Assembly: GCF_037042905.1 (NCBI RefSeq)
Contig: NC_087250.1
Location: 26,724,001-26,788,000, forward strand
Direction: 5' to 3'
Length of the DNA: 64,000 bases
Source: Lytechinus pictus
Taxonomy: Eukaryota
Part shown: piece after piece, positions 6,027 to 64,000 of the stretch
How the letters are laid out: every line of letters starts with the position of its first letter
How positions within the stretch are numbered: position 1 is the first letter of the stretch
Position numbers and translations under genes: made by a program
The notes under the pieces: model-generated
Told to the model about the DNA's origin: nothing
The model's input: the letters and a program-made list of their open reading frames with translations, nothing else
The model's database searches: none

Positions 6027-6049
<23 letters not shown>

Positions 6050-6055
<6 letters not shown>

Positions 6056-41831: not shown

Positions 41832-42307
41832 GTAGCTTTCCTTATAAAATGTGTTTAATGACAAAAGAGGTATTTTATTGTTTTACAAACTTCTCAAGTT
41901 TTCTCTTCTTCCACATTTTTTTCTTACATTTTTCCCCTGTGCCAAATCTATTTAGAAACTAAGCTGAACTACCCAATTAGTCAGATTGAAACTCTAGTAA
42001 GCATGTGACCCAGTAATGCGAGTTTGATAATTTCATTCATATTTCAAAAAAGAAGGCAAAATATAAATGACTAAATTGAAATAAAAATCTTAATTCCAAT
42101 ATATTTCACATAACATTGACCTGGTTTATAATAAAACTGTAAGATTTATGACCCTGGAACATACAATAATGCCTCTGACTGCCTCTTTCATCCAATACCA
42201 TTAACAATAATAATTCGGTAAATCATTGTTTTAGGAAGTATAAGGTATATCGTCCGGTGATACAAAAATTACAACATACAACATACAACGTAATTTGAAT
42301 TTGTTAC

Positions 42308-44469
42308 CTTGGAGAAATCAACTGTCTGACTGATTCATCCCTAGCATAGTGGATCGGTATATTGCCTGCTTTGTCTTCTGTGTCAGATCGTGCTCCATTT
42401 GTAAGAAGGACCTTTACAATGTCAATGTAGCTATTCTTAGCAGCAATGTGTAGAGCAGTCTGACCATCGTTATCACCCCTATTGACTTCAGCTCCGTGGC
42501 TGATCAGATATTTGATGACGTCAAGGCGGCCATTCTTAGCAGCAATGTGTAGAGCACTCTGACCATCGTTATCACTCAAATTGACTTTAGCTCCTAGGAT
42601 GATCAGAGAGCTGATGACGTCAAAAAGGTTATTCTTAGCAGCGATGTGTAGTGCAGTCTGACCATCAATACCACCCTTATTGACTTCGGCTCCTTGGCTG
42701 ATCAGATATTTGATGACGTCAAGATGGCCATTCTTAGCAGCGATGTGTAATGCGGTCTGACCATCATTACCACCCTTATTGATCTCGGCTCCTTGGCTGA
42801 TCAGATATTTGATGAAGTAAAGACGGCCATTCTTAGCAGCAATGTGTAGAGCAGTCTCACCATCGTTATCACCCCTATTGACATCAGCTCCTTGGCTGAT
42901 CAGATATTTGATGACGTCAAGATGGCCATTCTTAGCAGCAATGTGTAGAGCAGGCTGACCATCGTTACCACCCATATTGACATCAGCTCCTTGGCTGATC
43001 AGATATTTGATGACGTCAAGATGGCCATTCTTAGCAGCAATGTGTAGAGCAGGCTGACCATCGTTACCACCCATATTGACATCAGCTCCTTGGCTGATCA
43101 GATATTTGATGGCGTCAAGATAGCCATTCTTAGCAACAATGTGTAGAGCAGGCTGACCATCGTTACCACCCATATTGACATCAGCTCCTTGGCTGATCAG
43201 ATATTTGATGACGTCAAGATGGCCATTCTTAGCAGCGATGTGTAGTGCAGTCTGACCATCAATGTCACCCTTATTGAACCTAGCTCCTTGGCTGATCAGA
43301 TATTTGATGACGTCAAGATGGCCATTCTTAGCAGCGATGTGTACTGCGGTCTGACCATCAATACCACCCTTATTGACTTCGGCTCCTTGGCTGATCAGAT
43401 ATTTGATGACGTCAAGATGGCCATTCTTAGCAGCGATGTGTAGTGCAGTCTGACCATCAATACCACCCTTATTGACTTCGGCTCCTTGGCTGATCAGATA
43501 TTTGATGACGTCAAGATGGCCATTCTTAGCAGCGATGTGTAATGCGGTCTGACCATCATTACCACCCTTATTGATCTCGGCTCCTTGGCTGATCAGATAT
43601 TTGATGAAGTAAAGACGGCCATTCTTAGCAGCAATGTGTAGAGCAGTCTCACCATCGTTATCACCCCTATCGACATCAGCTCCTTGGCTGATCAGATATT
43701 TGATGACGTCAAGATAGCCATTCTTAGCAACAATGTGTAGAGCAGGCTGACCATCGTTACCACCCATATTGACATCAGCTCCTTGGCTGATCAGATATTT
43801 GATGACGTCAAGATGGCCATTCTTAGCAGCGATGTGTAGTGCAGTCTGACCATCAATATCACCCTTATTGAACCTAGCTCCTTGGCTGATCAGATATTTG
43901 ATGACGTCAAGATGGCCATTCTTAGCAGCGATGTGTACTGCGGTCTGACCATCATTACCACCCTTATTGATCTCGGCTCCTTGGCTGATCAGATATTTGA
44001 TGACGTCAAGATGGCCATTCTTAGCAGCAATGTGTAGAGCAGGCTGACCATCGTTACCACCCATATTGACATCAGCTCCTTGGCTGATCAGATATTTGAT
44101 GACGTCAAGATGGCCATTCTTAGCAGCGATGTGTAGTGCAGTCTGACCATCAATATCACCCTTATTGAACCTAGCTCCTTGGCTGATCAGATATTTGATG
44201 ACGTCAAGATGGCCATTCTTAGCAGCGATGTGTACTGCGGTCTGACCATCATTACCACCCTTATTGATCTCGGCTCCTTGTCTGATCAGATATTTGATGA
44301 CGTCAAGATGGCCATTCTTAGCAGCGACGTATAAAGCAGTGTATCCTTCCCTGGTCACTTTGTTCACATTTACTCCATGCCCAAGTATAGTTGTGATTTT
44401 CCCCAGAAAACCCAGCGATGCAGCTAAATGTAAATCTGTAGTATGTCCATCTCCATTCTCCATCTCCAC
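42308..44469 (-). CDS. Ankyrin-repeat protein exon (~21 repeats of 33 aa)
   Basis: Tandem 99-bp units encoding TALHIAAKNGHLDVIKYLISQGA; donor ccaag|gtaac at 42307; the upstream repeat at ~44470-44530 is out of frame, so the start is uncertain. Confidence 0.9.
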
Positions 44470-44654
44470 ATCAGCTCCGTGCTTTATACGAAATTTAATG
44501 AGATCCCCTTACCGCTTCGGTATGTAGAGCTAGGTAAAATAGCAATATCAAATCCGTGCGTGGTATACAAATGATGCATGCAGATGTGTTTATTATGCAT
44601 ACAGTTTCGATATCAATCCATTCCACGAAGCGAACAGGCCTTTGGTTGAATTGG

Positions 44655-45103
44655 GGGCGCATGTACCACTGATAGGATCCTGCAATTTCGGGAATCCCCT
44701 TTAGACCCGTACCTTAAAATGACGTAATGGTTGGAACGGTGCATATCTCAGCAATTTTTTTCATATGGGCATAGAGAGGGATTACTACTGGATCTGTTCA
44801 GTCCCATGGGAGAGCAGTAATTTGTCAATGCTAGATTTTATGGGACCTTAATTAGTTGCCCAAGAAACCCTGTGAGCACTGTGACTGCAACCAAGTTTGC
44901 ACGTAGTCTTGGTTTGAGCCGCTGTAGCGCGAAAAAATATTGAAAAACACCCTTTCATATCTTTAGCATTTGAAGGATATTGGATACACTACCAAATGAT
45001 AAAGGTGTGGATGATGTCATTTCTAAGACTTATTTTTGGCGATTTTTTCAAATCTCATTTTTAACACATGAGTCTATGGGGAAATAGTTAGTGGTGTGTG
45101 CCC
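44655..45103. repeat. 449-bp terminal unit (LTDR) with its own TIRs
   Basis: Begins gggcgcatgtaccactga, ends ttagtggtgtgtgccc, followed by tcaa; its first ~345 bp recur inverted at 56235-56597. Confidence 0.85.
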
Positions 45104-45418
45104 TCAACAGGTATTGTGCAGTAAACAGGGCTAGTTGGATGTAATTGCTGCTGGAAGGGAAACTGATTAAAAAGAAGGTGTGCAAACACTCTGAATAAAT
45201 GCCTGCCCTGTTGTTCTATCATGAAAACCCAATTGGCAGCTAACTAGGCACCATTTTCTTCAAAATACTCAAACAAATATAAAAATGCCACTTTTGCCAT
45301 TGACTTTGTATGTAATTTTGGCACTCTCCTACATTGGGGTCTTAAATGCAAGACTAGCACGCGCGTAGTAATCAGAAATACGTGTAGATCGTAGACCAAA
45401 ACATAAACAGGCCAGCAC

Positions 45419-48400
45419 CATAGAGATGTATACTAATAACGCTAGAGTGCGGAGTCGCCATAGGCGCGCGTACTTAACGTTTGTGATTGCGCGGAGAATG
45501 GTCGGCCATTGCTCGATAGGTCTCGATTTGCAAAAGTACCCGGATGTACGCATAGCTCGTGCGTTGTAATGCTGTGAAAAAGGGATGCCGTCTCCGGCCT
45601 TTTTCTTGAAGAAAAGAATCCAACCTAATTACAATCGAAAATATGAATGACAAATTGCATCTCAATAAACTATTAGAGTGATTACATGGGGATTCTGCTA
45701 TTAATTTGGCATTTTTAAACCTGATTTCTCGGGATGAAATTCTAAATAATTTGCATTTATACCTGTCCGTTTATAGGCCTTTAATAGATAACAATGTTGA
45801 TACTATCATATAAATAATTAGATAAAAATAAAAACATACAACGGACATTAATAGAAAGATTGACAATTGATTCAAAAGACAGTGAATTAGCCCATCCCCG
45901 GAGCCCATCTTCTCTGGATTTCCTTACCTTTAACTGCATCGTCCCCACGGCATATTTCCTTCAATCACGTCCTTTCATTCCATGTTCTCGTGACCAATTT
46001 GTTTATGTCGGATATAATTTTGTAATTTCTATATAGGCCTACAATATGTAACTTGCTTTAATTTGTATGAAATATAGGCCTATCATTTTTATATATTAAG
46101 TTGTACAATAATTTGTATAATGTTCTGATCTTTGATTACTATATATATAAAACATGCGCTATTATAATTTTAGTATAATTAAAGGGCATCTCATTGTTGT
46201 TCTTGGTGAGCCTCCCGTTACACCATCAATGTTAAAATTTGTGTTATTTGGTGAACGTCCTAATTTTGTTCTTATAGGAACATAATAAATTCCCCAAAAT
46301 CTGCAGGCCTATATGGCCCGAAAATGAAATATTGATAAAAAAATGTCGAGAATATAGCTTTTTATTGCAAACTTTTCACTTTTTAATTCCCTTCACTAAG
46401 TTCACTTTAAGTTAGATTTTTTTATTCGCTTTTTAGGGGGCCGTACACGTGTGTAATTAAAGTAACAAAGGTACCCTAGCAAATTCGCTTTAACATACTG
46501 ATCAAAATAAAATACAGGCTGCGCGACCGGATCCCTCCTTGAAATGAAAATGAACATTACACATAATAAATGATTTTGATTTTATGCACCCCATCACTTT
46601 CAAAATCATTCCGCGACGCCGTAGGTCTATAACATGATATAATAATTTTGTTCATCCATGGAAATCTTATTGTAAAAAAAAAAAGAATGATCCCCCGGAA
46701 ATAATCAAACTCAGGTCCATAGGCCAGCCAATGACATTAAAGGAAGAAAACTAGAAAATCAAATTCATATTATACTGTTAAAATGAAAAACAAAACTGAA
46801 TATTCAAAACGCGTGTTTATCTGTTTATAATTATGTATAGGCCGGTGCCTAAGAATATTTGCCATAAATTTCATTTATTCAAGCGACACAGACACAGTTA
46901 ATTAACACGATTTCAAGGCAGGTATCAAATTTGTAATATCTTACTCCAAGTATTTGTCAGTTTTGCAATATTATTGTTCCATAATTATGTTCATAGGCGG
47001 CGGAAGCGGGGGGGGGACAGGTCCCCCCTCCCCCTAAAATTGAGGTGGGGGACGGTCCCCCCTCCCTAAATTTGTTGTTGATAACCTTTTTTTTTTTTTT
47101 GCTTGTCAATTTTTTTTACCTGTGTCCATCACAATATTTCAGGTGGACTCCCCTAAATTTTGTGGCTTCCGCCGCCAGTGATTATGTTTGGTTTTAGTGC
47201 TCACAATATTTTGCAACCGTTTTCATATAATTATAATAAGTTTATTAAGTTTGCATTAATCTCTTTCATGATATTGTTATTGGTTTTATACACTCTTGCA
47301 GTAGTATTAATGTTCTTTATAGTATAATACAAATTATATATCCTAATCCCGCCCCTTTTCTTCTCCTCTCCTTCTCCCCCTTCTTCCTCTCCTTATTATT
47401 CTATCCTTGATTTGTTCACATAATATTGGTCCAATCATTATAGGATCAGAAACACCGGCGATAAACAGAAAATGTCAGTCAGTCTGCCGATCAGCATAGT
47501 ATTTCAGCCGGGGAGAATCAAGTCTAGACTTTCCAGAAAATCAAAGTGAAATTGTTTTATGTTGCGCATTGCGATTTGTTTACTTTCCGAAGTTTTGAAA
47601 TGTTTGCAAGGCAATTTAACACTGTAAACAGCATAAACTCCCCCCCCCCCACCCCCTTAGGCCTCCTGTACATTGCAAAATTGTACGACTGCAAGAGCGC
47701 ATTTGATATGCAAATTTTGCTGTCAACAAACTTTTCTACATTGATCGCAAGTACATGAAGTAAGAAAGTAAATATGATATGGGATGGCTGCCAGCAAAGG
47801 AAATCTAAATCATCAATTTTTAACTGAATCAATGCGTAAATCATTTTCAAATATCAATAAAAAGTCGGGTTTTTGTGATGTTGGTTAATTACATCAGCGT
47901 GTAAGACATGGGGAAAAGGGATCGAGTTAGGCCCTATTCTATGTATGATTTCTTTATGTAGATCTATATGGAAAATGAATTATAACAATGATCTAAAGTG
48001 AAGAAATAAATTATCAGCAATCAGTATAATAGTAATTAGGAAACTATACTTGAAAAAATACAATCGTGTTTTTTTTTCTCGATACCTTAGTGTCTCGGAT
48101 GCATCAGACACTGGCCTATGAATTTTCTTAGGTTAATTTCACCAAATCATATTAAGACATATTAAATTAGTTTATCAGGACCTAGGCCTAAATGTTATTT
48201 TTGATATTCATCTCTTCCAAATTATTAGAAAATAGAAGTCATATTAATGTATCGAAATTTTACCAAAGCAAAAGCAATTGGGACTGTAAATCGTTTGCCT
48301 TTATTATAGTTGTATAGGCCTATATTATGCGCTAGAGATAGGCCTATATAGGATTTTTGACCTCAGTTTTGCTAGATTTTTTTTGTTATTTGAACTTTAA

Positions 48401-48604
48401 TCCAGTGCAATATTTAAAATTTTGCTTTCGCGCTCAAATGTCATCAATTTGTCCTGTTCTGTGCTCATCCGTGTACATGCCCCATAGGTACTGTACGCGC
48501 ATGGCAGGCTGCGAAGACCTATCGAGCAATGGCGGCCGGTCTCCGCGTAATCACAGCGATTTGACGAAGTACGCCCTCTAGCGTTATTAGTATACATCTC
48601 TATG
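45419..48604. mobile_element. Non-autonomous P-element-like insertion in INT1
   Basis: 29-bp TIR catagagatgtatactaataacgctagag; 8-bp TSD gccagcac (45411-45418, 48605-48612); empty site in INT2 at ~52574. Confidence 0.9.
46992..47180. mobile_element. Small hAT-like MITE
   Basis: TIR cataggcggcggaagc / gcttccgccgccagtg; 8-bp TSD attatgtt. Confidence 0.8.
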
Positions 48605-48837
48605 GCCAGCACCGACACCGGCACCTAGTTTATTGTTAGTAATTCTCTTTCAACATCTTCCTAAGATAGGATTTTCAGTCAAGTTAAAAGGAATAACATG
48701 GCAAGGTAAAATTTGAAGTTTTTATATGGAATTTTATAGCAATGAATGTCTGGTTACTGAAATTCATTACAGAGGGCAAAACTTACTATTATTAATTAAT
48801 GTTATTTGGCTGTATAGGCCTAGTACCGTACACAATC

Positions 48838-49244
48838 ATGGCTGATCCACATCAGGAATGGTGTTCCAAATATTCAAAACTATTGGACAGTAAGACAGAA
48901 AAGAGGGGAAATGAGCCGTCGGCATGCTGGCCATTTAAAGGGCGAACAAAAAATGGGTATGGCTTAGTGGATGTGAACATCCCAGCCCCAGGCAGCCGTA
49001 AGACCACTAGGCATGCCCATCATCGGCTTGTGCTGATGACAAGGGTGGCGATGACTTGGGAGCTAGGTTTCGTCTGAGCTCCATGAGTCCATGCCTCTCA
49101 CCTTTGCGGTAATCGCATCTGTGTGAGGCCAAGGCCAAGCCATTTAGTGTTTGAGAGCCATATGAAGAGAAAAAACAGCGTCAAATTTGCCATAATTTGA
49201 AAACTTGCCAATCCCACGAGCCCCCTTGCATCATATCAGCCTGA
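48838..49244 (+). pseudogene. His-Me finger nuclease, disrupted copy
   Basis: Same sequence as 52797-53180 with several 2-8-bp insertions. Confidence 0.9.
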
Positions 49245-49371
49245 CTTAAGTATCACTGTGAGTGTGTGACTAACTGAGACTACAGTGAGTTTATTAACTA
49301 ATTTTAGGGAAATTAGGCATAGAGGTCTGGGCCTAGACTACATAATTATTAAACAAATAAAGTGATCCAAA

Positions 49372-51400
49372 GTCAAGATCTAGTTTCCCCTTTATCGCAG
49401 ATCTTTCTGTCATAGCTAGGAGTGATCACTTTGAATAGATATGTGAGTGTTTTCTAATTGTCCCTTCACATAAGAGTGGAAATTGCTGTCATCTTTCCAC
49501 CTTTTTACCTTTTGATACAGTTTGTATTTATACTCCCTATGTGTAGCTTTGGACTTAATTGCTGTCATCTTTTTACTTCTCTTTCTCCAGTAGTCCCTTC
49601 TCTGCTGCAGATGCAAGAGCTTGTGTCGAAGTCTTGATCCCCCTTTCACTGGAACCTGGGCAGCTAAGGCCTTGTCAAGGATCGATGCGGGGCCCCCGTT
49701 GGTAAGTTGTATTGCAGAATGCTCTCTGTTTGCTTGATTTCTGACATAGGTAGTGGAATGCTTTGGGTAGGTTACTCTGAAAGCAGAATTCATTGACTCT
49801 GCCTTTTGTGTTGACAAATTAAACCGTGTTCTCCTGAGGGTTTGAGTGGACAGTCTTTGACGTATTGTTCCCAAAATTTGTTGCTGATCTCTCATATTAA
49901 GCGTTATCCGCTGTCTAAACTCCAGAGGTAAAAAGGGAAATTTGAACCCTCCGTTACATGCTAGGCTCTGGTTCCAGCACAGTTCATGATTTCCAGTATA
50001 ACACAAAATCATTGCCTCCCCACATCTTTGCAACTGTTCTTCGTATACTAAAATGTCCCCTGATTGATTATGTGCTGAATTTAATTCAGCTTGAACCCTG
50101 TAAGCAATGTCGCCTGCCATTGCTCTCTGCTGCTTGTCTCTCAGTCTTGAAGTTTTACCTGGGAAAGAATTTTTGCTCAGAGTAAGTCTTTCCAATTTTT
50201 TACACGGAGACCGCTTCAGGTGATTGACACAAAGGTATGATGTTGGATCTACACCAGCTGCGCTCTTCATGACTTCTTGGACTCCCCTGTGAAAGTGTCC
50301 ATCACTATCGCTAACAACACCTTTGACAAGTAGCTGCGTTTTATCTCCAGTAAGTAATTTTTGTGCACATTTTTGTCCACCAAGCATTTCGTCCCCTATG
50401 TTATCACTCATCTTTATTGTGGCTGTACACTTAGGATGGTTAGGGCAGGCAGGTTCTTTTCCTTGACCAACTAATCTCTGGCCTACTCTACAAAGTCACA
50501 ACATCACGAGCTTGAGTCGCTGGTGCAAATGGTGTTCTCCCCTTTGCATGGCTGAGAGGTATGTTATATTGTCTGTCAATTTCTATGTTAATAGGTGTAT
50601 TTCTGTCCATCCCTCTGTACTCCAAAATGTCTTTCACCTTCCTGCGCTTTTCTGCCATATCCAATTCATTGGCAGCGGCCAAGATATCACCACATTTGTT
50701 AGCTGTCTTTTGGAAACCGCTAAGTGATCCAGTTGGAATACTCATTGCTGTTAGAATCCTGCTTGCAGCAGCATTTGCAATACTGCTTTGGTATAGCCCC
50801 ACCTGTAGAGCCATGTTTGGTACAGCAGTTTTTCTCCCTGATTCTGTTTTATCAATCTCTCTGAAAAACTTTAGAGCGGTTGATTCAAATTTACAAGTCC
50901 TGCACCTGAATACGACAGTAACTGCAATTCCTCTTATCTTTTCTTTTTCTTCAGGAATCATCCAGTCCATGTTTGAACACCCAGGGCTACAATGTGAATG
51001 CTGTTGGCAAGCTTCATTAATTGATGGCCATGGTGAGCTTCTCTACATCAACAATCCGATGACCGACAGCTGAACCATCAGTGGATGTCAACATTTTTGC
51101 CAGTGGTACAGAGTCTTCTGATGTCTTTGGCCTGAGAATCATGGTTGTAGAAGAGCGACTGACAGGTTGATCATGCTTGTGAAGAAAGTTGCCACGCTCA
51201 TCACGGGACATTGTGCGGTCCAAGTCCTCTCTTGTTAGACGTACATATTTGGTCTTGAGAATACTGTTGGAATTACCAGCTTCCCACTTCAGCCCCTTAT
51301 TCCATGCTCTATGGCCAGGTACAAAAAGGTTCTTTCGCTTGTCAGATAGTTTCTTGGGGCCCATTGTGATTGCTTTTGGTTTGGCAGGGAAAGTTTTCAC
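49372..51400 (-). pseudogene. DDE transposase, disrupted copy
   Basis: Near-identical to 53301-55373 but with a 53-bp deletion at ~50497 and 4-bp insertions at ~51017 and ~49415. Confidence 0.9.
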
Positions 51401-52796
51401 TTGTATTTATACACTTTTCTACTGTGCATCCTCCCCCCCCCCCCCCTCCTCCCCACAATAAGGAGAAGAAAAAAAAATCACAATTATGTCATGATTTCCT
51501 CCCTATTTTACAGGGAAATCATTTTCTTTTTAACCCAGAAGGGCAGCAGTGACGTATTTTGTAGCCAGAATTCCATGAGTACTTCCATGTCCTTCACCTA
51601 GTTTACATTACACAATTGTTATGGTGACAGATTCATATTCCACACTGGCCAGCAATAAATGTCCCTTTAGTATACTACTGAATCAATACTCTGGATCATG
51701 ATAATAATCACAATGTATTCAGCTATCATTCTCTGTCATTTGGCTCTTCTCAATAACCCCCTCCCGGCCCCTCTCTCTCTCTCTCCCCCCCCCTCTCTCC
51801 CTTTCCTCCTTCCATTTTTCATCCCTTTCTGTCAACATGTCACTCATTTTCTCTGCCTTCTGTAAAACTATGAATGTTATTACACACAAGGCACTTAGAT
51901 TTGCTTTTTCTTTTGTTTTTATTGTTTTTTCTCTTGAATTGTGATATTAATTTCAAGTGATAATGACTTAGAAAAATGAATCAAGTACTATTAAAACACA
52001 TTTACAACATTTCAAAGGTGATGATTATCATTAAATTTCAATTCATGAACATGGATTGAGCTTAAACATTACAAAATTTTCTTATAGGTGCATTGTTTCA
52101 ACATTGTGTATTCTGTCTGTATTATAACCCTGGAGAGACAATGTTTATTCCCTGATCAGAAGAGAACGGGGTCTCCAAAAAAAAAAAAAAATTAACATTA
52201 TGCATATGATACCCTAAGGTTGTGCCAAAAAAAAAAATTCCCAAGTTCAGTGAGAATCGCACCCTCTCAACAGGTATTGTGCAGTAAACAGGGCTAGTTG
52301 GATGTAATTGCTGCTGGAAGGGAAACTGATTAAAAAGAAGGTGTGCAAACACTCTGAATAAATGCCTGCCCTGTTGTTCTATCATGAAAACCCAATTGGC
52401 AGCTAACTAGGCACCATTTTCTTCAAAATACTCAAACAAATATAAAAATGCCACTTTTGCCATTGACTTTGTATGTAATTTTGGCACTCTCCTACATTGG
52501 GGTCTTAAATGCAAGACTAGCACGTGCGTAGTAATCAGAAATATGTGTAGATCGTAGACCAAAACATAAACAGGCCAGCACCGACACCGGCACCTAGTTT
52601 ATTGTTAGTAATTCTCTTTCAACATCTTCCTAAGATAGGATTTTGAGTCAAGTTAAAAGGAATAACATGGCAAGGTAAAATTTGAAGTTTTTATATGGAA
52701 TTTTATAGCAATGAATGTCTGGTTACTGAAATTCATTACAGAGGGCAAAACTTACTATTATTAATTAATGTTATTTGGCTGTAGGCCTACACAATC

Positions 52797-53180
52797 ATGG
52801 CTGATCCACATGAGGAATGGTGTTCCAAATATTCAAAACTATTGGACAGTAAGACAGAAAAGAGGGGAAATGAGCCGTCGGCATGCTGGCCATTTAAAGG
52901 GCGAACAAAAAATGGGTATGGCTTAGTGGATGTGAACATCCCAGCCCCAGGCAGCCGTAAGACCACTAGGCATGCCCATCGGCTTGTGCTGATGACAAGG
53001 GTGGCGATGACTTGGGAGGTTTCGTCTGAGCTCCATGCCTCTCACCTTTGCGGTAATCGCATCTGTGTGAGGCCAAGCCATTTAGTGTTTGAGAGCCATG
53101 AAGAGAACAAACAGCGTCAAATTTGCCATAATTTGAAAACTTGCCAATCCCACGAGCCCCCTTGCATCATATCAGCCTGA
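52797..53180 (+). CDS. His-Cys-box / His-Me finger homing-endonuclease-like protein (127 aa)
   Basis: CWPFKG..GYG...HAHRL...ASHLCGNRICVRPSHLVFESHEENKQRQIC...C..HEPPC motif pattern; aataaa at ~53284. Confidence 0.9.
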   Translation: MADPHEEWCSKYSKLLDSKTEKRGNEPSACWPFKGRTKNGYGLVDVNIPAPGSRKTTRHAHRLVLMTRVAMTWEVSSELHASHLCGNRICVRPSHLVFESHEENKQRQICHNLKTCQSHEPPCIISA

Positions 53181-53300
53181 CTTAAGTATCACTGTGACTA
53201 ACTGAGACTACAGTGAGTTTATTAACTAATTTTAGGGAAATTAGGCATAGAGGTCTGCGCCTAGACTACATAATTATTAAACAAATAAAGTGATCCAAAG

Positions 53301-55337
53301 TCAAGATCTAGTTTCCCCTTTATCGCAGATCTTTCTGTCATAGGAGTGATCACTTAGAATAGATATGTGAGTGTTTTCTAATTGTCCCTTCACATAAGAG
53401 TGGAAATTGCTGTCATCTTTCCACCTTTTTACCTTTTGATACAGTTTGTATTTATACTCCCTATGTGTAGCTTTGGACTTAATTGCTGTCATCTTTTTAC
53501 TTCTCTTTCTCCAGTAGTCCCTTCTCTGCTGCAGATGCAAGAGCTTGTATCGAAGTCTTGATCCCCCTTTCACTGGAACCTGGGCAGCTAAGGCCTTGTC
53601 AAGGATCGATGCGGGGCCCCCGTTGGTAAGTTGTATTGCAGAATGCTCTCTGTTTGCTTGATTTCTGACATAGGTAGTGGAATGCTTTGGGTAGGTTACT
53701 CTGAAAGCAGAATTCATTGACTCTGCCTTTTGTGTTGACAAATTAAACCGTGTTCTCCTGAGGGTTTGAGTGGACAGTCTTTGACGTATTGTTCCCAAAA
53801 TTTGTTGCTGATCTCTCATATTAAGCGTTATCCGCTGTCTAAACTCCAGAGGTAAAAAGGGAAATTTGAACCCTCCGTTACATGCTAGGCTCTGGTTCCA
53901 GCACAGTTCATGATTTCCAGTATAACACAAAATCATTGCCTCCCCACATCTTTGCAACTGTTCTTCGTATACTAAAATGTCCCCTGATTGATTATGTGCT
54001 GAATTTAATTCAGCTTGAACCCTGTAAGCAATGTCGCCTGCCATTGCTCTCTGCTGCTTGTCTCTCAGTCTTGAAGTTTTACCTGGGAAAGTATTTTTGC
54101 TCAGAGTAAGTCTTTCCAATTTTTTACACGGAGACCGCTTCAGGTGATTGACACAAAGGTATGATGTTGGATCTACACCAGCTGCGCTCTTCATGACTTC
54201 TTGGACTCCCCTGTGAAAGTGTCCATCACTATCGCTAACAACACCTTTGACAAGTAGCTGCGTTTCATCTCCAGTAAGTAATTTTTGTGCACATTTTTGT
54301 CCACCAAGCATTTCGTCCCCTATGTTATCACTCATCTTTATTGTGGCTGTACACTTAGGATGGTTAGGGCAGGCAGGTTCTTTTCCTTGACCAACTAATC
54401 TCTGGCCTACTCTACAAAGTTTGTTTGTTGAATTGTAAGTTACAATGTACTTCTCCGGGGTCACATTTTCTGTCACAACATCACGAGCTTGAGTCGCTGG
54501 TGCAAATGGTGTTCTCCCCTTTGCATGGCTGAGAGGTATGTTATATTGTCTGTCAATTTCTATGTTAATAGGTGTATTTCTGTCCATCCCTCTGTACTCC
54601 AAAATGTCTTTCACCTTCCTGCGCTTTTCTGCCATATCCAATTCATTGGCAGCGGCCAAGATATCACCACATTTGTTAGCTGTCTTTTGGAAACCGCTAA
54701 GTGATCCAGTTGGAATACTCATTGCTGTTAGAATCCTGCTTGCAGCAGCATTTGCAATACTGCTTTGGTATAGCCCCACCTGTAGAGCCATGTTTGGTAC
54801 AGCAGTTTTTCTCCCTGATTCTGTTTTATCAATCTCTCTGAAAAACTTTAGAGCGGTTGATTCAAATTTACAAGTCCTGCACCTGAATACGACAGTAACT
54901 GCAATTCCTCTTATCTTTTCTTTTTCTTCAGGAATCATCCAGTCCATGTTTGAACACCCAGGGCTACAATGTGAATGCTGTTGGCAAGCTTCATTGATGG
55001 CCATGGTGAGCTTCTCTACATCAACAATCCGAAGACCGACAGCTGGACCATCAGTGGATGTCAACATTTTTGCCAGTGGTACAGAGTCTTCTGATGTCTT
55101 TGGCCTGAGAATCATGGTTGTAGAAGAGCGACTGACAGGTTGATCATGCTTGTGAAGAAAGTTGCCACGCTCATCACGGGACATTGTGCGGTCCAAGTCC
55201 TCTCTTGTTAGACGTACATATTTGGTCTTGAGAATACTGTTGGAATTACCAGCTTCCCACTTCAGCCCCTTATTCCATGCTCTATGGCCAGGTACAAAAA
55301 GGTTCTTTCGCTTGTCAGATAGTTTCTTGGGGCCCAT
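53301..55337 (-). CDS. Kolobok/Mutator-like DDE transposase, intact (first ATG 55337; frame open to 55373)
   Basis: Candidate triad IEID / VSDSD / QKAES; CxxH (CVNH) after the second Asp; Cys/His clusters CRTC and CPNHPKC. Confidence 0.85.
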   Translation of the reverse strand: MGPKKLSDKRKNLFVPGHRAWNKGLKWEAGNSNSILKTKYVRLTREDLDRTMSRDERGNFLHKHDQPVSRSSTTMILRPKTSEDSVPLAKMLTSTDGPAVGLRIVDVEKLTMAINEACQQHSHCSPGCSNMDWMIPEEKEKIRGIAVTVVFRCRTCKFESTALKFFREIDKTESGRKTAVPNMALQVGLYQSSIANAAASRILTAMSIPTGSLSGFQKTANKCGDILAAANELDMAEKRRKVKDILEYRGMDRNTPINIEIDRQYNIPLSHAKGRTPFAPATQARDVVTENVTPEKYIVTYNSTNKLCRVGQRLVGQGKEPACPNHPKCTATIKMSDNIGDEMLGGQKCAQKLLTGDETQLLVKGVVSDSDGHFHRGVQEVMKSAAGVDPTSYLCVNHLKRSPCKKLERLTLSKNTFPGKTSRLRDKQQRAMAGDIAYRVQAELNSAHNQSGDILVYEEQLQRCGEAMILCYTGNHELCWNQSLACNGGFKFPFLPLEFRQRITLNMRDQQQILGTIRQRLSTQTLRRTRFNLSTQKAESMNSAFRVTYPKHSTTYVRNQANREHSAIQLTNGGPASILDKALAAQVPVKGGSRLRYKLLHLQQRRDYWRKRSKKMTAIKSKATHREYKYKLYQKVKRWKDDSNFHSYVKGQLENTHISILSDHSYDRKICDKGETRS

Positions 55338-56957
55338 TGTGACTGCTTTTGGTTTGGCAGGGAAAGTTTTCACTTGTATTTATACACTTTTCTACTGTGC
55401 ATCCTCCCCCCCCCCTCCCCACAATAAGGAGAAGAAAAAAAAATCACAATTATGTCATGATTTCCTCCCTATTTTACAGGGAAATCATTTTCTTTTTAAC
55501 CCAGAAGGGCAGCAGTGACGTATTTTGTAGCCAGAATTCCATGAGTACTTCCATGTCCTTCACCTAGTTTACATTACACAATTGTTATGGTGACAGATTC
55601 ATATTCCACACTGGCCAGCAATAAATGTCCCTTTAGTATACTACTGAATCAATACTCTGGATCATGATAATAATCACAATGTATTCAGCTATCATTCTCT
55701 GTCATTTGGCTCTTCTCAATAACCCCCTCCCGGCCCCTCTCTCTCTCTCCCCCCCCCCCCCTCTCTCCGGGCCCTTTCCTCCTTCCATTTTCCATCCCTT
55801 TCTGTCAACATGTCACTCATTTTCTCTGCCTTCTGTAAAACTATGAATGTTATTACACACAAGGCACTTAGATTTGCTTTTTCTTTTGTTTTTATTGTTT
55901 TTTCTCTTGAATTGTGATATTAATTTCAAGTGATAATGACTTAGAAAAATGAATCAAGTACTATTAAAACACATTTACAACATTTCAAAGGTGATGATTA
56001 TCATTAAATTTCAATTCATGAACATGGATTGAGCTTAAACATTACAAAATTATCTTATAGGTGCATTGTTTCAACATTGTGTATTCTGTCTGTATTATAA
56101 CCCTGGAGAGACAATGTTTATTCCCTGATCAGAAGAGAACGGGGTCTCCAAAAAAAAAAAAAAAATTAACATTATGCATATGATACCCTAAGGTTGTGCC
56201 AAAAAATAAAATTCCCAAGTTCAGTGAGAATCGCATCATTTGGTAGTGTATCCAATATCCTTCAAATGCTAAAGATATGAAAGGGTGTTTTTCAATATTT
56301 TTTCGCGCTACAGGGGCTCAAACCAAGACTACGTGCAAACTTGGTTGCAGTCACAGTGCTCACAGGGTTTCTTGGGCAACTAATTAAGGTCCCATAAAAT
56401 CTAGCATTGACAAATTACTGCTCTCCCATGGGACTGAACAGATCCAGTAGTAATCCCTCTCTATGCCCACATGAAAAAAATTGCTGAGATATGCACCGTT
56501 GATTTTATATTAATATTTTTCCAACCATTACGTCATTTTAGGTACGGGTCTAAAGGGGATTCCCGAAATTGCCGGATCCTATTAGTGGTGTGCGCCCTTC
56601 AGAGGGTGCGATTCTCACTGAACTTGGGAATTTTTTTTTTTGGCACAACCTTAGGGTATCATATGCATAATGTTAATTTTTTTTTTTTTGGAGACCCCGT
56701 TCTCTTCTGATCAGGGAATAAACATTGTCTCTCCAGGGTTATAATACAGACAGAATACACAATGTTGAAACAATGCACCTATAAGATAATTTTGTAATGT
56801 TTAAGCTCAATCCATGTTCATGAATTGAAATTTAATGATAATCATCACCTTTGAAATGTTGTAAATGTGTTTTAATAGTACTTGATTCATTTTTCTAAGT
56901 CATTATCACTTGAAATTAATATCACAATTCAAGAGAAAAAACAATAAAAACAAAAGA

Positions 56958-58875
56958 TAATTCTAGAGAAATTTAATATTGACATTTCAGAGGACACTTT
57001 AGATATAGGGGCCTACACCCAAACAAATTTTGCAGCACATGCTATTGCCATCTCACAATCAAGAAACCATTACATTGGACACCAAAAAACTGGGACACAC
57101 ATAGGAGAACATCACACTGTCATACATGTACACATTTTAAAGAAACACAAACACCAGGCAGACCAAAGAAAAGAAAAGCTGGTGGCCGCCCCCCTGCAAC
57201 AACAACACCCCAGTCTCACTTTTCTCAATTAGGAGTATCACTATCAGGAACAACAGACAATCAAAAATACAACATCAATCAAGACACATTTCACATTGAT
57301 AATTCACTACAATTCCTTTTGTGTTGTGTTTGTAGGTCTGTTGTGTCATGTCCTGTCGAGTCACCTTGTAACCACCTGTTTTGTCTTGACTGTATATCGT
57401 CTCTCTTTGTCAAAGTGTCTGTTAGCTGTCCTCTTTGTAACATTCAATTTCATTATTCTCAAACACACACACCAGCCGCATACATCATCACATTACTACA
57501 AAATCTTCATGTTCAGTGTTCACATTGTAAAACATCCCTTCACTACACCCAAACATCAGGCCATTCGTGTCATACTCGTGTAAACTGTGACCATACATAC
57601 GCAAAATGTACGCAAATGGACCTCAACACCCAACAACGCCGGCAGATAGCCTCTGAATACCTCAAATGTCAGATGGCCAAGTCACATGATGGTATGTCAG
57701 CCAGCATAGGTTTAGCAGGTCGTGGAAAGGTAAATGCAAAAGTCTTATCTCCTAGCTACCGGTAGTTTAAAGTAACAATCATCATCACATATTTCAAACT
57801 TGCAGAAGATTTTGTGGAAGACGAACAAGTTAGGGTCTCAAAATATATCATTCTCTTTATCATTGTCAGTCAAATTTATTTCAGAAGTTTCAACATTTAA
57901 AAAAGTTATTTCAATAGTCCCAGTAGATTTGAATTATGCAAGGTTGATCAGGTTGAATTCACATATAAAGGCAAATGATTGGGTATATATTACCCAAGTA
58001 ATATTAGTAAATATGTATTTTATTATATACATATTATATATATAATTTCAGTTTCATACATTTAAGTTTTCATACTGTAAAGAAATTAGCCATTAATGTA
58101 TTTTAGTTCACAGTATAAGAAACAAATAAAATAATCATAATGGTGCATATATCATGTAAGTATAACAACAAAACTTTGCCCCCCCCCCACCAAACAAAAC
58201 TAAAAATAACAAAAGAAAACATGGATTTCTAGAAAGTCATAGATATCATTTAATTGCTATAATTTAACTATTTTCTAGATACACAACCCTGTATGTTGAA
58301 TCCTCATTAGATATACATGTATTCTAAAAGATTTTAATAATTTTACACCATTATCTTGAATAATATAATGTTATTTTGAAAATGAAACTTCAGCGGTAAC
58401 TTGCCATCTATATATTCTTACAGCCTATGAGAGCTTTCAAAATTCCAAGCAGCATCGTACCAAGTACAACCTGTTCATCATCCACCCTCCGTAAAAGAAC
58501 GTCAATAATACATCATGTAAGGCAAGAGGTTTCTGGTGGGAGAGAGGCAGCCGATACTCAACAGCAACATGAAGTTTCCCAATCTGCAAGCATCACAGGG
58601 ATCTTGGGCCCACAACCCCTCCATATTCCATCAAGAGACATTATGGAGCTGAAAAGCTTCTTCAGCTTGAGTTGGAGAAAGCTACGACGTTTGAAGAGGT
58701 GACTTGAACAATCTTTGTTATGGACATTCATGTAATTACACCCCGGAAGAGGGTACTCAGATTTGGTTTGGACGGGGATCTGCAGCTGAAGAGTTCATAC
58801 CCATACTTATTAAGTTAATGGGTCATTTAGTCAGAAAGGAATAATAATAATAACAATAATAATAATAATAATAAC

Positions 58876-58922
<47 letters not shown>

Positions 58923-61900
58923 TAATAATAACCTGCTCAACATTTGCAGCACATGATACGTCTCTATGGACTTTTAAAGTACTTTGGATGTTCTTACCCC
59001 GGCTTTAGCCCCTGGAGCCTTTATACAGATCTCAGTGCATTCAAGGAATGAATCCTACCAGGTACCCACTTACAACACCTGGGTCGAGTGTGGCAAATGT
59101 AGATTAATATCTTGCTAAAGGACATTGGTACTGTGGTGGGATTTGAACCCCAGATCTCGTGGTTCACATTCCCTTGACTTATCCACAGCACCTTTACAGG
59201 GTACCAATTAAAAGGTATTTCATTTTTTTGTAAAGACCACTTTTGCATCTCGAATGATATTCTCAAACGACGAGAATATATACGGGCGAGAATATCATTC
59301 TTAACAATAAAGTTACCCATGTTTTGGAGGTTTTCTGGCACAAAACATTACCCCATGCTTTGGGATTTCTTTTAAAAAAGTGACCCATTAGAGTGGCACA
59401 TATCCCCATATACCTTATAAGATGAGTATTCCCCCCCCCCCCCCCACCCCACCAGGAATTACACCTCATACTAGATTAAGTCATTAATACAATAAAAATA
59501 CAATACCTAAATATATTTCTTAACAGCTGGCTAAAAGAACGGAGAATTTCTACAGGAAATGAGAGGGAAGTGAGGAGACTCCAAGATGATGTGGTAAAAA
59601 ACAACATTACCGGGGAACTGTTGCCTCTCCAACAAGGCTCAAGTGAGACTGGCATGGAAATTAAGGAGACCCCGGTAGTAACAGTAAGCAGCCTCAGTGC
59701 CCTTGTCAAGGACTTACTAGAGGAATATGATCGGTGAGTTCTACCTGTGATAATGTAAACAAAACCATTAAAGCAAATCATTAACATAACAAAAGAAGAA
59801 AGATATTTTAAATATCATTAAAAATGATTACTGAATGCACCAATTACAAAAAAAAATGATAGGGATGAATTCACAAGAGAGTTTTAAACCTCCTTTGTGA
59901 ATTTGGGCCATAGTGTTTCTGATATTGATATCTATTCCTTATCCTCAGAAGCATTATGATTTTATTCTGGTAATATAATTTTATTAATTAAACCCATTTA
60001 AATCAAATTAAATAGCCCTTTGAATAATGCAATAATATCCTATTTCTACATATCTACAGACTTGGAGAGCTCACCTGGCATGACGACCACATCCCCGAAG
60101 GAGAAATTTGGTTGAAAGGGGGAGGAACTTTCAAGCTAATGGTGCAATTGGCCAATGTGAAGCGACCCAATAGCCTCCACAACACCCGGGTGATCATGTT
60201 GTTCCCTGGATCTGACTCCACTTACAACCTCGATGTCTCTCTGGAGACCATTAGATGCCAAATTGCTGATTTGGAGTCAATGTCATGGCGGTGTGTTTTC
60301 TTCTTCTGTTGAATAAAATATTAATATCCATAAAAATCAAAAAGATTACCAGAACCTATAAAATTTCAATGAGTAAGATTTCTAATGTGAATGTAGTTAT
60401 TTGGTATGTGAATTTTATTGTGTCTATCTCATATTTTGTCTTTATACAGAGGGAAAACCATGAAAGTCTTTGCCTTCGGCGACTATGAATATCTGACCCG
60501 CATGTATGGACTCACTGGCCCCAATGGTAAGCCTTACTTTCATAAACATTATATATACATATATATTATTTTGATTGAATAGAGGTAATTAAAAAAAAAT
60601 AATAATTTCTCTTGACTTGTATCCCCATTTTTTTTTTTCTTCACCAGGCCGTCATTGCTGTCTCTACTGTGAGATGACCAAGAAGGAAATAGCTGACCCA
60701 CCAATGGCTGTCCCCTGTCAGCGAAGCCTGCAGACCCTCAAGGAATCCCTGAACCACTTCAAAACCTGTGGCATCCCAAAGGAATCTAATAACGTCATCA
60801 GATCCCCATTCTTTGACATTCCAATAAATAGGGTAAGATATTTAAGAAAAAAATGATTTCAATAGCCAAATGCTTAATCAGTAGCCAGAATATAACTCTC
60901 ACCAGGGGTGGGGTGGGTGTGTAATCGGATCTGTATCTTACCACAGACCTTTATGCTTATCGGGTTATAGCTACTTTAAACCCCTCAGGAAGACAAACAT
61001 TCAGAACATTCAAAAGTGAAATCTTAATTTCATCTGCAATGATGACAATGAAAATTGTTATTAATACCTCTGATATTATAAGCCCTTTTCTCTTATTTAT
61101 CAGGTCTGTCCTCCTGGGCTCCATATCTCCCTCGGGGTCTTCTTGAAGCACTTCAACTCGCTCTGCCAAGCATGTCACACTCTGGACCTGGAGATTGGCC
61201 AGTCCTTGGCAAAAAGTCCTACAGACCAACTGGAAGCAAAAGAGGCCTTCAAACAGCAGCTGAAGAAGCTGAGTCTCCAGTCAAGACTGAAGCTTGCTGA
61301 GGAAGAACTCCACGACCTCATGGACCAGCACATGATGGTTGGACTTCTTTACCCTGAAGCTGAACCGCCCACCCTCATCCTGGAAATGGCTGAAGAGAAG
61401 AAGAGAGAGAAAGTTACACTGGTTAGTATCTTGGATGTCACACTGGCAGTATTGTAAATACGAGTTGCATACGTTTTAATCTTAAATCATGTATAGATGT
61501 ACCAAATGCATCTTTAACTAAAATTAATATAAGATTTAACATATAAAATCTCTTTTTTATTTGTAGGAGAAGGAAATAGGCAAAATACCAGAAATGACAG
61601 TTCACTCTGGACCAACTAATGTTGGTCTAGAAGAAGCACTACAGCAGTTGAGAGTGAGCAGACAGGCGTACCATGGTCGTTCATTTGTAGGGAACCATGT
61701 ACATAAATGTTTACAGGTGAGTAGAGTATATCATGAAAAGTAAGAACATTCCTGAAATATACTACTATATTTACACAAATTATAGTAATTCACATTGTCT
61801 TTCTTTTGAATAATACAAGAAAATATAAATTCTAGATGTTTGCTTCTTGCCTAATGTCCACTTTATTCTAATAGTAAATGTCACTATCCTTTTACTTTGA

Positions 61901-62601
61901 ACCTATCTTCGTGTACCTTGTTCCAACAGCCTGAGAACACTGATCTGATCACTGCTGCTATATCAAAGAAGGTACAGTCACTCTGCCCCAACGACCGGGA
62001 CCTCATCCAGAAGGCAGAAGAGATAGCCAGCAAGTATAATACTTTGCTAAAGCTGTTCGGGGCATGCCACCGGGGTATAAACACGGGTACTTTCCTGGAC
62101 GACTCAGTCATCGACAAGCTGGGTAAGAGTCTAAGAGATCATGATCATAAAGGTCAGCTGCAAAAAAAAAATGAAATGCAAGTAATTTTCATATCAAATA
62201 AATAAAGAGTGACAGAGCAAGAAAATATCAATTGACACTGAAGAAGCAAAAATATTACTAGAAAATAACATTTATAGATCTCTATTTTTGTTTTTTCTAT
62301 CGTTTATTTACTGACAGACAAAGACATCAAAGAGTATATGTTGTTCTACCGTCAGAACTTCCCCACAGAGAGCGTGACCCCCAAACAGCATCTATTGCAG
62401 TATCATGTCATCCCCTGGTTCAGAGACTGGAGAGCAAGCCTTGGGATGATGGGTGAACAAGGGGGAGAGTCGGTCCACTGCCAACTCAACAACATTTCAA
62501 GAGATTTGAGGGGCTACAACGATGACCTCAAACTCAATATACAATGTGTAAAAAATCAGTGGATATTAAGTAGCCCCTCAAATTACAATAAGTTCAGTTA
62601 G
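56958..62601 (+). pseudogene. Chapaev/N-RAG-TP-like transposase with RAG1-like motifs, 10 exons, 5'-truncated
   Basis: Exons ~56958-57729, 58424-58698, 59527-59733, 60060-60290, 60450-60526, 60648-60832, 61104-61421, 61567-61716, 61930-62122, 62318-62601, all GT-AG and phase-consistent; motifs HPNKFCSTC, C3HC4 RING, FGDYEYL, CCLYC, PPGLHISLG, FVGNH, TPKQH...HV, EQGGESVH. Confidence 0.85.
58742..59456. mobile_element. MITE in intron 2 of the RAG1-like gene, containing an (AAT)n tract and a SINE-like fragment
   Basis: 8-bp TSD aattacac (58734-58741, 59457-59464); ends cccgg..gggtactc / gagtattcccc..ccagg. Confidence 0.65.
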
Positions 62602-64000
62602 ATCCACTCTAAATACCCTCTCAATCTCGGAGTAGAGAAGTAGAGAAGTGTACACTGAATTCTATGTATACAGAGCTTGTGGGGTCTTTAATTTTTTTTA
62701 TTCATCTTATTTTATTCTATTATTTTTTATATTTTTTATTTGCAATCTAAGAATATATTCTTGCCTTGGGAATTAAACTTAGAATTAAATAAGAGTGTAT
62801 ATAGCATTAAACAAAAAATTGATTCGAATGGCTTTACTGAAGTAGGTCACCTTTTTGTTCTCTGTAATAGACATGCAGTAGAGAATTATGTTGAAACTTT
62901 AATCTATGACTATATTTCAAAAACATTGTATAGAATAGAATGATTGATTAGAATGCATTATGTATTTACATATATAGTCTAATAAAGTCTGTTCTGCAAT
63001 ATCTGGAATCTGCAATATCAGCTAGATACCAGTATCCATTAGCGGATGAAGTACAGAGAATCAGAGATACATGTACTACTGCCAGTGTGTAGGATTTAGG
63101 ATCAGTGGACAAGTATCCAGACTTATTATTATTATTATCATCATTATTATCATCATTATTATTATCATCATTAATTATTATTACTTTTATTTGTATCAAT
63201 ACATTTAACTTCATCAGGCTGTAGACATTTGTTTATGAACAAAAATCAGAAACATTTACGTCTGGTCACAAAGAGTGTACCAATATTTATGTCTGGATAA
63301 CTTGTGCACTAGACTAATGTGCACATTATTGCATTTGACTTTGACAAGTTCGGTTGATATTGAGAATAGAGAGAGAATAAAAGAATAAATACATCAACTA
63401 TGACAGAATTTGAGAAAACAGTGGCTGGAATAAGGTCTGTGATGTTAATTGTCTTTGTTAATGCAGATTTCTAAACATGATGGGTGATCATAATCATATG
63501 GATGTGATAACTGACAAGCTGTTTGGAATCACTTCTGGGTACATTTTTGTAGAAAAAGTCACAGAATTTTGACAGACATATATACATGTATACACAGTTG
63601 TAAATTTAGGAAACACAAGAGCTAGAGCCAACAGCCCACAGAAACTCCCCAACAGAGTAATATTTTCCCAAGGGATTAAATTTTACAAAAAGCCTGCAGT
63701 GCTCAGCTGAGGGAAAATATAGTCCGAGGGAAAAAATAAAAAATAAAATAACATACATGTAGCATTTCCATTGGAGATCCGCATGCTCAAGTTGCTGCAG
63801 CTCTTATCCCCTCTAGGCTTTACTGTAGAAGATGTGATGGCATTTGGACGTTCATGTACCTCTACTCAGTATCTGTAATAGACCCAGGCGCGTAGCCAGG
63901 GGGGAGGGGGGGCGCTAGCCCCCCCCCCAAAAAAAAAAAACCGCCAGCCAAAAAGAGAGAGAGAGAGAGAGAAAAAAAAGTAAGAGGACGTAAAATTATA

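Follow-up and report, generated by a model that had tools for sequence, protein, structure and literature searches.

A probable Chapaev-type DNA transposon copy, rich in introns and defective, in the sea urchin Lytechinus pictus

Chapaev DNA transposons with an N-terminus made of a Chapa finger and a RING were reportedly described by Kapitonov and Jurka in 2007; the group has been known since 2005-2007, and its RAG1-resembling front part has long been published. The Chapa finger is followed by a RING in two Chapaev subgroups, the core is distant from RAG1 and Transib (PMC4411706), and Chapaevs of the Chapa plus RING type are described (PMC4411706; PMC4079192; bioRxiv 10.64898/2026.01.24.700457). 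RAG1 N-terminal-like proteins of sea urchin and lancelet, such as the 305-aa SP_1226, were reported by Kapitonov and Jurka 2005 (PMC1131882, section 11). The cores of TransibSU and RAG1L share more than 30% identity with RAG1 (PMC4411706), RAGL elements make 5-bp duplications and carry two convergent genes (PMC7204232) and have RSS-heptamer-like ends, and Transib lacks any NZD-like domain (bioRxiv 10.64898/2026.01.24.700457, section 9). N-RAG-TP is described as consisting only of RAG1 N-terminal-like sequence (PMC8355894).

Here we analysed a gene near the end of a 64-kb window (the whole stretch of L. pictus DNA under analysis). With a probability that we put at roughly nine in ten, it is a defective copy of a Chapaev-type DNA transposon rich in introns, and the intact transposon would encode a single chain of about 935 residues.

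Exon-intron structure of the gene

The gene has ten exons, the first spanning 56957-57729 overall and the last ending at 62601. Its features and those of the adjoining DNA are as follows.

56604-56957, + strand: inverted copy of the end of a neighbouring Mutator-like element, replacing the first 37 codons and the Chapaev left end
56957-57007, + strand: exon 1, piece before the frameshift, corresponding to residues 38-54 of P0015 (XP_063958309), the protein of a sister copy
57008-57015, + strand: 8-bp insertion, shifting the frame relative to the sister copy
57016-57729, + strand: exon 1, main piece, with the second half of the Chapa/NZD zinc finger, a basic linker, a C3HC4 RING and a further zinc finger
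58424-58698, + strand: exon 2, where the transposase core region begins
59527-59733, + strand: exon 3
60060-60290, + strand: exon 4, where the predicted RNase H-like fold has its first strands (Pfam DUF1280, E 8.4e-10), carrying the 15-bp deletion
60450-60526, + strand: exon 5, FGDYEYL with the second conserved Asp
60648-60832, + strand: exon 6, zinc ligands CxxC
61104-61421, + strand: exon 7, PPGLHISLG, with the greater part of a predicted long helical hairpin
61567-61716, + strand: exon 8, FVGNH
61930-62122, + strand: exon 9
62318-62601, + strand: exon 10, zinc ligands HxxxxH, EQGGE with the final conserved Glu, and the stop codon
63077-63089, - strand: putative CAC-type right end, one of 15 after the stop, with neither a target duplication nor a partner end inside the window

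All nine introns are GT-AG, with a GC content of 0.22-0.36 as against 0.41-0.52 in the exons, and the exons joined from 57016 form a single open frame of 877 codons plus stop. Judged from its sequence, the ten-exon model is correct. Using our own spliced aligner and a profile of 19 homologues from which this copy, its sister copies and an 89% identical S. purpuratus protein were excluded, we independently recovered every intron at its hand-read coordinates (score 1681, compared with 40-62 in all eight controls). The original prediction of ten exons and nine frame-keeping introns is upheld by this result; the motifs that it quoted were all found in the sequence, and the break that it marked in DI/HPNK is a genuine frameshift, made by the 8-bp insertion relative to the sister copy.

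Twelve metagenome loci were also considered, all but L003, L005, L010 and L011 entering the spliced alignment. Intron 1, which separates the RING exon from the core, lies at the same residue and in the same phase in all five related loci that span it, and the nine intron positions recur in relatives whose identity to the crinoid reference is only about 30%. A limited literature search found no printed account of nine conserved Chapaev intron positions. Exons 4-10 of this locus are already modelled in RefSeq (Lytechinus pictus XP_063956581).

N-terminal region and transposase core

As read from the sequence, exon 1 encodes a Chapa/NZD finger, a RING and another zinc finger besides. The RAG1-like N-terminus and RING proposed earlier were borne out both by Pfam zf-C3HC4, which scored above its cut-off in exon 1 (E 1.2e-4), and by the N-terminal family profile, which matched mouse RAG1 101-405 (E 2.1e-40) and the RAG1 NZD structure 21WB (E 1.4e-18). 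Pfam RAG1_imp_bd matched 53 of the 64 aligned members, and P0015 itself gave no match at E 0.01. Five of the eight NZD finger ligands are left in this copy; all eight are present in P0015, whose ligand pattern is type I by alignment (His4; His83, Cys89, Cys92). The top match of the predicted P0015 model was the RAG1 RING domain 1RMD (Z 10.2, rmsd 4.7, 107 aligned), and 21WB was not among the matches listed in two fold searches with the N-terminal model, RING domains having filled the lists.

Both folds, N-terminal and core, were predicted on relatives of this copy, and on that basis the core is predicted to fold like RAG1. The core model (pLDDT 89.6) is that of the 89% identical S. purpuratus relative. 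It was closest to RAG1 (Z 24.1, rmsd 3.7, 458 aligned, 13% identity) and BbRAG1L (Z 22.5, rmsd 4.6, 458 aligned), followed by HzTransib (Z 15.4, rmsd 7.0, 376 aligned). Identity in the structural alignments was low throughout (10-14%), being 12-13% to RAG1 and 10-12% to Transib. By phmmer the core matched no solved chain at E 10, a six-sequence core profile matched no RAG chain, and the Pfam listing for the core at E 1 contained no RAG1 family. A 44-sequence core profile reached BbRAG1L only at E 0.0014, with the zinc ligands and the final Glu aligned; this alignment and the fold comparison support the proposal that these residues parallel those of RAG1.

A Chapa plus RING N-terminus followed by a RAG1-like core that is only 12-13% identical to RAG1 is the published Chapaev signature, not that of RAG1L/ProtoRAG or Transib; the N-terminal profile, the RING and the fold comparison all favour the Chapaev-type assignment, which was made from these defining features rather than from a tree containing named Repbase Chapaev members. 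The core features of Chapaev, the first Asp among them, all occur in the relative of 89% identity and show conservation across 57 homologues, and this copy keeps every one of them except that Asp. The locus had been called a Chapaev/N-RAG-TP relative. The first half of that name stands and the second falls: N-RAG-TP, as described in PMC8355894, is rejected because a full DDE-type core follows the N-terminal region.

Lesions, element ends and sister copies

A working transposase gene is not what we found, since three lesions disable it. Chapaev homology stops at 56957, and the 56604-56957 segment is 98.6% identical, in inverted orientation, to 51906-52270 and 55879-56235, the ORF of the neighbouring element matching Pfam Mutator (E 1.9e-42). 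Codons 1-37 are absent from this copy, and a search of the rest of the 64-kb window did not find the corresponding residues elsewhere. The 8-bp insertion resembles a TA-duplicating excision footprint and may be one. In exon 4, an in-frame 15-bp deletion near 60115 removes the conserved first Asp of the GGDKG motif, which is present in 55 of 57 homologues and, by analogy, is likely a catalytic residue. The original prediction had reported neither the missing codons nor this deletion. The intact frame, start codon and full DDE triad by which an autonomous element is recognised are thus lacking, and this copy is likely inactive, since it has lost its start, its frame and its first Asp.

The earlier observation that no terminal inverted repeat or RAG2-like ORF is visible in the window agrees with our results: the copy has lost its left end, its right end could not be placed in the window, and no RAG2-like ORF occurs in the 1.4 kb after the stop, which is all that remains of the window. 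As candidate termini, CACACTGGCAGTA at 61439 and its inverted match at 63077-63089 were rejected: the match stops after 13 bases, no duplication flanks it, the choice was post hoc, and 5 of 100 shuffles reached three matches at two mismatches. The complete relative L004 measures 4,445 bp and carries CACGGGTGTTTCA ends of the CAC...GTG type, a 4-bp target duplication (AGTG) and a single 967-codon gene, with no second gene and no room for RAG2L. An end of its CACGGGT type was not found downstream of our gene within the window, and no terminal repeats were found in L001 and L006.

Seven L. pictus sister proteins in RefSeq are 97-100% identical over their aligned parts, and near-identical sister copies lie on at least three large contigs. 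RefSeq splits these copies into two genes, a RAG1-like ORF of 303-305 aa and a separate core, and they might be two transcription units, one for a free-standing NZD-RING protein about 303 residues long, the other for a core that begins at a Met in exon 2, possibly kept by the host as regulators. XP_063958309 and XP_063956594 are separate single-ORF proteins numbered next to core models, the earliest start among the sea-urchin core models is in exon 2, and GGDKG is found in none of the six L. pictus core models of this cluster. However, the ORF stops 11 codons past the conserved GT donor, and 19 of the 53 finger-bearing matches (one probably by chance) end in G[QK]V and a short unrelated tail, many others ending in close variants of it. 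The conservation of intron 1 in five of five loci also tells against separate units, as do full-length homologues with finger and core in one chain, namely crinoid, starfish and amphioxus gene models and a 970-aa protein from a 3.8-kb contig. With the exon-1 query, a word-indexed search found no such longer protein among 194 candidates and an exhaustive search found them; one 864-aa candidate (P0011) was rejected as a gene-model fusion with an amine oxidase. Moreover, near-identical dispersed copies suit a young transposon better than a host gene, and we regard two units as quite improbable. Because none of the six RefSeq core models keeps the first Asp, and two sister exon-1 ORFs retain all eight finger ligands and the RING, we also considered that the young L. 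pictus family spreads in the form of catalytically dead passengers, and that what is selected is an intact NZD-RING product, free of the core and about 303 residues long, made when the intron-1 splice is skipped. This product would be a natural free-standing RAG1 N-terminal module that works either as a ubiquitin ligase or in regulating other Chapaev/RAG-like transposases, an idea that we hold to be a long shot.

The lesions themselves might be assembly errors in an element intact and active in the animal, for the gene lies against a tandem duplication of 3.7 kb and inverted segments of 92-99% identity, a type of region that can be misassembled. Yet all the other sister core models likewise lack the exon-4 motif, and sequencing errors do not typically take the form of an 8-bp non-homopolymer insertion or of a 15-bp in-frame deletion, which makes this reading very unlikely. 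Least probable is a RAG1L of the ProtoRAG/RAGL lineage with its RAG2L gene beyond the window end. The RAG1-like domain order agrees with it, as do the best structural matches, RAG1 and BbRAG1L ahead of HzTransib, but it is largely refuted by the 12-13% core identity, against more than 30% for TransibSU/RAG1L (PMC4411706), by the profile and phmmer results above, and by the 4-bp duplication and one gene of L004, as opposed to the 5-bp duplications and two convergent genes of RAGL elements (PMC7204232).

Under the preferred reading of a defective Chapaev-type copy, the intact form would likely be a chain of RAG1-like zinc finger, RING, zinc finger and DDE core, predicted to excise the element and paste it elsewhere. 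From RAG1 and Transib biochemistry, we infer that the enzyme would bind the element ends, that its three acidic residues would hold metal ions, and that a zinc-binding insertion domain would separate the second Asp from the Glu. The RING would likely serve as a dimerisation module or as a ubiquitin ligase regulating the enzyme. The family likely spread recently in the L. pictus genome with the help of an intact copy, and no such helper was found among the sequences examined.

Significance and comparison with known systems

By itself, this copy has little significance as a broken member of a known group. As for its originally suggested relevance to the origin of the RAG1 N-terminus, a claim to anything new is not supported: both Chapaevs of the Chapa plus RING type and RAG1-N-like proteins of sea urchins have already been published (PMC1131882; PMC4411706; bioRxiv 10.64898/2026.01.24.700457), and RefSeq models most of the locus. 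A search for literature on L. pictus with RAG1 and transposon found nothing. That such distant relatives have the nine intron positions in common indicates that the database 'RAG1-like' ORFs of about 300 aa are first exons of spliced Chapaev genes, and the shared positions support an early joining of finger, RING and core, the view of PMC4411706. Chapa domains have had no experimental tests so far (bioRxiv 10.64898/2026.01.24.700457), and the sister exon-1 protein and the apparently intact L004 offer ready material on RING ligase activity and on the effect of the finger on transposition.

Among individual proteins, the closest is S. purpuratus XP_794084.3 (LOC589347, uncharacterised), which is 89% identical over 633 residues, collinear with exons 2-10, and the sister row to this copy (SH-aLRT 100) in a quick tree of 34 of the 58 aligned rows (shorter and redundant rows left out), all of them unnamed or uncharacterised homologues. 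It differs in retaining GGDKG and in a gene model that begins in exon 2. The proteins of Kapitonov and Jurka 2005 share the motifs H-x3-L-x3-C-R-x-C-G, D-x3-I-h-P-x2-F-C-x2-C and W-x-p-h-x(3-6)-C-x2-C, the RING, an about equal ORF length and recently duplicated copies, but they were described apart from any core, whereas the ORF here is exon 1 of a spliced transposase gene. With vertebrate RAG1 and amphioxus ProtoRAG RAG1L, the gene shares the order NZD, RING, zinc finger and core, the core fold (Z 22-24), the zinc ligands and the final Glu. It differs from them in a core identity of 12-13%, below the roughly 30% or more to RAG1 that marks RAGL cores, in the lack of a visible RAG2-like partner, in its nine introns and, as judged from L004, in a 4-bp instead of a 5-bp duplication. 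With Transib (HzTransib) it shares a related core fold, and it carries both the NZD and the RING that a Transib core lacks. Chapaev matches best, with a Chapa/NZD finger and then a RING, a DDE core bearing the C(2)C and H(3-4)H motifs, distant kinship to RAG1 and Transib, and, in L004, CAC...GTG ends with a 4-bp duplication (3-4 bp in the family); our copy departs from it in being truncated, frameshifted and without the first Asp.

Structure and lesions of the RAG1-like gene

The original prediction of a ten-exon RAG1-like gene (56957-62601, plus strand), with nine GT-AG introns keeping frame, was borne out by hand reading and by an independent spliced aligner, and all of its quoted motifs were found in the window sequence. 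When the exons were joined from 57016, a single open frame of 877 codons was obtained. The independent test was our own protein-to-genome spliced aligner, with self-set parameters and a profile of 19 homologues partly built on database gene models; the window copy, its Lytechinus pictus sister copies and the Strongylocentrotus purpuratus relative were excluded from this profile. All nine introns were placed at the hand-read coordinates (score 1681), while the controls (the reverse strand, three shuffles and four other window stretches) scored 40-62.

The RefSeq annotation of the sister copies counts against this model, as it splits a 303-305 aa ORF from a separate core and would make two units of the gene. 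However, that ORF ends 11 codons past the donor of conserved position, and G[QK]V with a short tail terminates 19 of the 53 finger-bearing hits (one probably by chance). Moreover, intron 1 has the identical residue and phase in all five loci spanning it, and finger and core occur within a single chain in a crinoid, a starfish, amphioxus and one further short-contig protein. The aligner was applied to 8 of the 12 metagenome loci carrying relatives. Among these, L004, L001 and L006 have all nine introns in identical phase and at most three residues apart, L001 and L006 with one extra intron each and L006 additionally frameshifted; L007 has nine introns with one phase difference. Judged from sequence, the ten-exon model is correct.

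The window copy carries three lesions. At 56957 the gene abuts 354 bp from the end of the adjacent Mutator-like element, in inverted orientation; codons 1-37 are lost with the start, His4, Cys12 and Cys15, and the loss of these residues affects both of the finger's predicted zinc sites. An 8-bp insertion (57008-57015) shifts the frame, and the next in-frame Met is located past the RING. In exon 4, a 15-bp deletion takes out the first conserved Asp, which is present in 55 of 57 homologues (the others having one Asn and one gap). GGDKG, the motif containing this Asp, was found in none of the six L. pictus core models of the cluster: the deletion accounts for one (the window copy), exon 4 is skipped in two, and the remaining three begin downstream of the motif. 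The window copy is likely unable to make an active enzyme. The gene is real; it is a defective representative of an already known, Chapaev-like kind.

Features elsewhere in the window

45103-56597: Mutator-like (PF20700) nest
48604-52261 and 52573-56235: 3.7-kb tandem duplication in this nest, 96% identical
53301-55379, minus: 692-codon open frame in the second tandem unit
44655-45000 and 56235-56597: inverted 345-bp segments
45420-48603: insertion of 3.2 kb that has terminal inverted repeats (ATAGAGATGTATACTAATAACGCTAGAG) and is flanked by a perfect target duplication of 10 bp (GGCCAGCACC)
6047-8492: large inverted duplication whose two arms (6491-6988; 7547-8044) are 100% complementary
42304-44508, minus: single ORF of 734 codons, built of ~20 ankyrin repeats of 33 residues that are nearly identical to one another
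32549-35395 (minus) and 454-1545: fragments of broken non-LTR retrotransposons, with Pfam matches to endonuclease and reverse transcriptase
31754-32257, minus: partial THAP zinc finger (E 4e-6 in Pfam)

In the first tandem unit of the nest, the reading frame is broken into two. The insertion at 45420-48603, with no internal ORF of 100 codons, is likely a non-autonomous Mutator-type element. The ORFs at 6047-8492, which we take to resemble a Penelope-type retroelement, matched nothing in Pfam at the thresholds applied.

Relatives, N-terminus and core

RefSeq XP_063956581 (L. pictus), which models exons 4-10, was 100% identical to window exon 10 and has the window copy's deletion and two private residues. 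Sister models of the same protein clusters lie on contigs of 28.5, 31.3 and 49.7 Mb, and all seven L. pictus sister models compared were 97-100% identical to the window copy over aligned parts. A profile search, with 8,000 candidates scored, yielded 58 core relatives from echinoderms, amphioxus, a hemichordate, sponges and a cnidarian. A rapidly built 34-row tree placed the window copy as sister to the S. purpuratus protein XP_794084.3 (SH-aLRT 100); both fell within a group of 14 rows that comprised sea-urchin proteins and one other row (support 99). The S. purpuratus protein is 89% identical to window exons 2-10 over 633 residues, while the best L. variegatus match reaches 54%; such a contrast would be explained by horizontal transfer or else by loss from L. 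variegatus.

The missing start of the gene was supplied by XP_063958309, a sister protein of 303 aa that RefSeq calls 'V(D)J recombination-activating protein 1-like'. Of the solved structures, RAG1 was the one that this protein alone matched best (E 1.7e-7, in the RING region), and it also matched residues 146-363 of full-length mouse RAG1 (E 6.6e-5); it did not match Pfam RAG1_imp_bd at E 0.01, a family matched by 53 of the 64 members of the N-terminal profile. The similarity to RAG1 on which the original prediction depended was recovered with this profile, which gave E 2.1e-40 for mouse RAG1 101-405 and E 1.4e-18 for 21WB, the NZD (N-terminal zinc finger) structure; true RAG1L first exons, which may be present in the profile, would have raised these scores. 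The predicted RING region matched RAG1 1RMD best (Z 10.2, rmsd 4.7, 107 aligned).

As a single protein, the core matched none of the solved chains at E 10. A 44-sequence core profile matched amphioxus BbRAG1L (E 0.0014); the CxxC, the paired His residues and the final Glu lined up in this match, as had been proposed for the zinc ligands and this Glu. The fold predicted on the S. purpuratus protein (pLDDT 89.6) matched RAG1, BbRAG1L and HzTransib in Foldseek (E 1.8e-14, 4.8e-11 and 4.5e-7) and in VIA (Z 24.1, 22.5 and 15.4, respectively, at 12-13% identity). The predicted core clearly has the RAG1/Transib fold, and by sequence it is far from RAG1. Taking D600, D708 and E962 as the RAG1 catalytic residues, the first Asp would be the D600 equivalent, based on motif order and its location within residues 170-180, which form the first long strand in the predicted structure. 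Exon 7 (61104-61421; residues 361-444 of the S. purpuratus protein) is predicted to form a long helical hairpin, which aligned solely to unrelated coiled coils and is probably an insertion that sets this family apart from RAG1.

Element anatomy and known systems

The left end of the element is absent from the window, and its right end, sought there, could not be fixed. An apparently complete relative of 4,445 bp was found at L004 (contig WASV01062019.1, 285-4729), with matching 13-bp ends CACGGGTGTTTCA, a 4-bp AGTG duplication and one gene of 967 open codons and nine short introns, encoding the finger, all three acidic motifs and the zinc ligands. This element is a candidate for biochemistry. 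Considering the family and L004, cut-and-paste transposition is the likely mode of movement of an intact element: an RNase H-like DDE enzyme would bind the CAC...GTG ends, and insertion would leave a 4-bp duplication. By analogy with RAG1, a regulatory effect of the finger and RING on the enzyme is likely; the 2026 preprint knows of no test of such a role in a Chapaev (bioRxiv 10.64898/2026.01.24.700457).

A 2005 study described sea-urchin proteins of ~305 aa that have the same motifs together with a RING (PMC1131882). Chapaevs with the Chapa finger and RING, and their relevance to RAG1, were presented in 2015 (PMC4411706), and the structure of the NZD and a division of Chapa into two types followed in the 2026 preprint; related literature includes PMC12730594, PMC9885083 and PMC8355894. 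By alignment, the finger ligands of the sister protein fit the type I arrangement in the 2026 preprint (one N-terminal His plus His-Cys-Cys). A 1,239-aa Amphiura filiformis model (XP_072043951) has repeated Chapa-RING units among CxxC-rich repeats; none of the transposase core motifs searched for was present in it.

The Chapaev-like call was correct, as a RAG1-like N-terminus is joined to an only distantly related core, the arrangement that PMC4411706 and the 2026 preprint describe for Chapaev. In contrast, RAG1L and TransibSU cores are >30% identical to RAG1 (PMC4411706), compared with 12-13% here. The ends and duplication of L004 correspond to the Chapaev hallmarks in PMC4079192, whereas the RAG1L-RAG2L elements, with a 5-bp duplication and a convergent gene pair (PMC7204232), differ from L004 with its 4-bp duplication and one gene.
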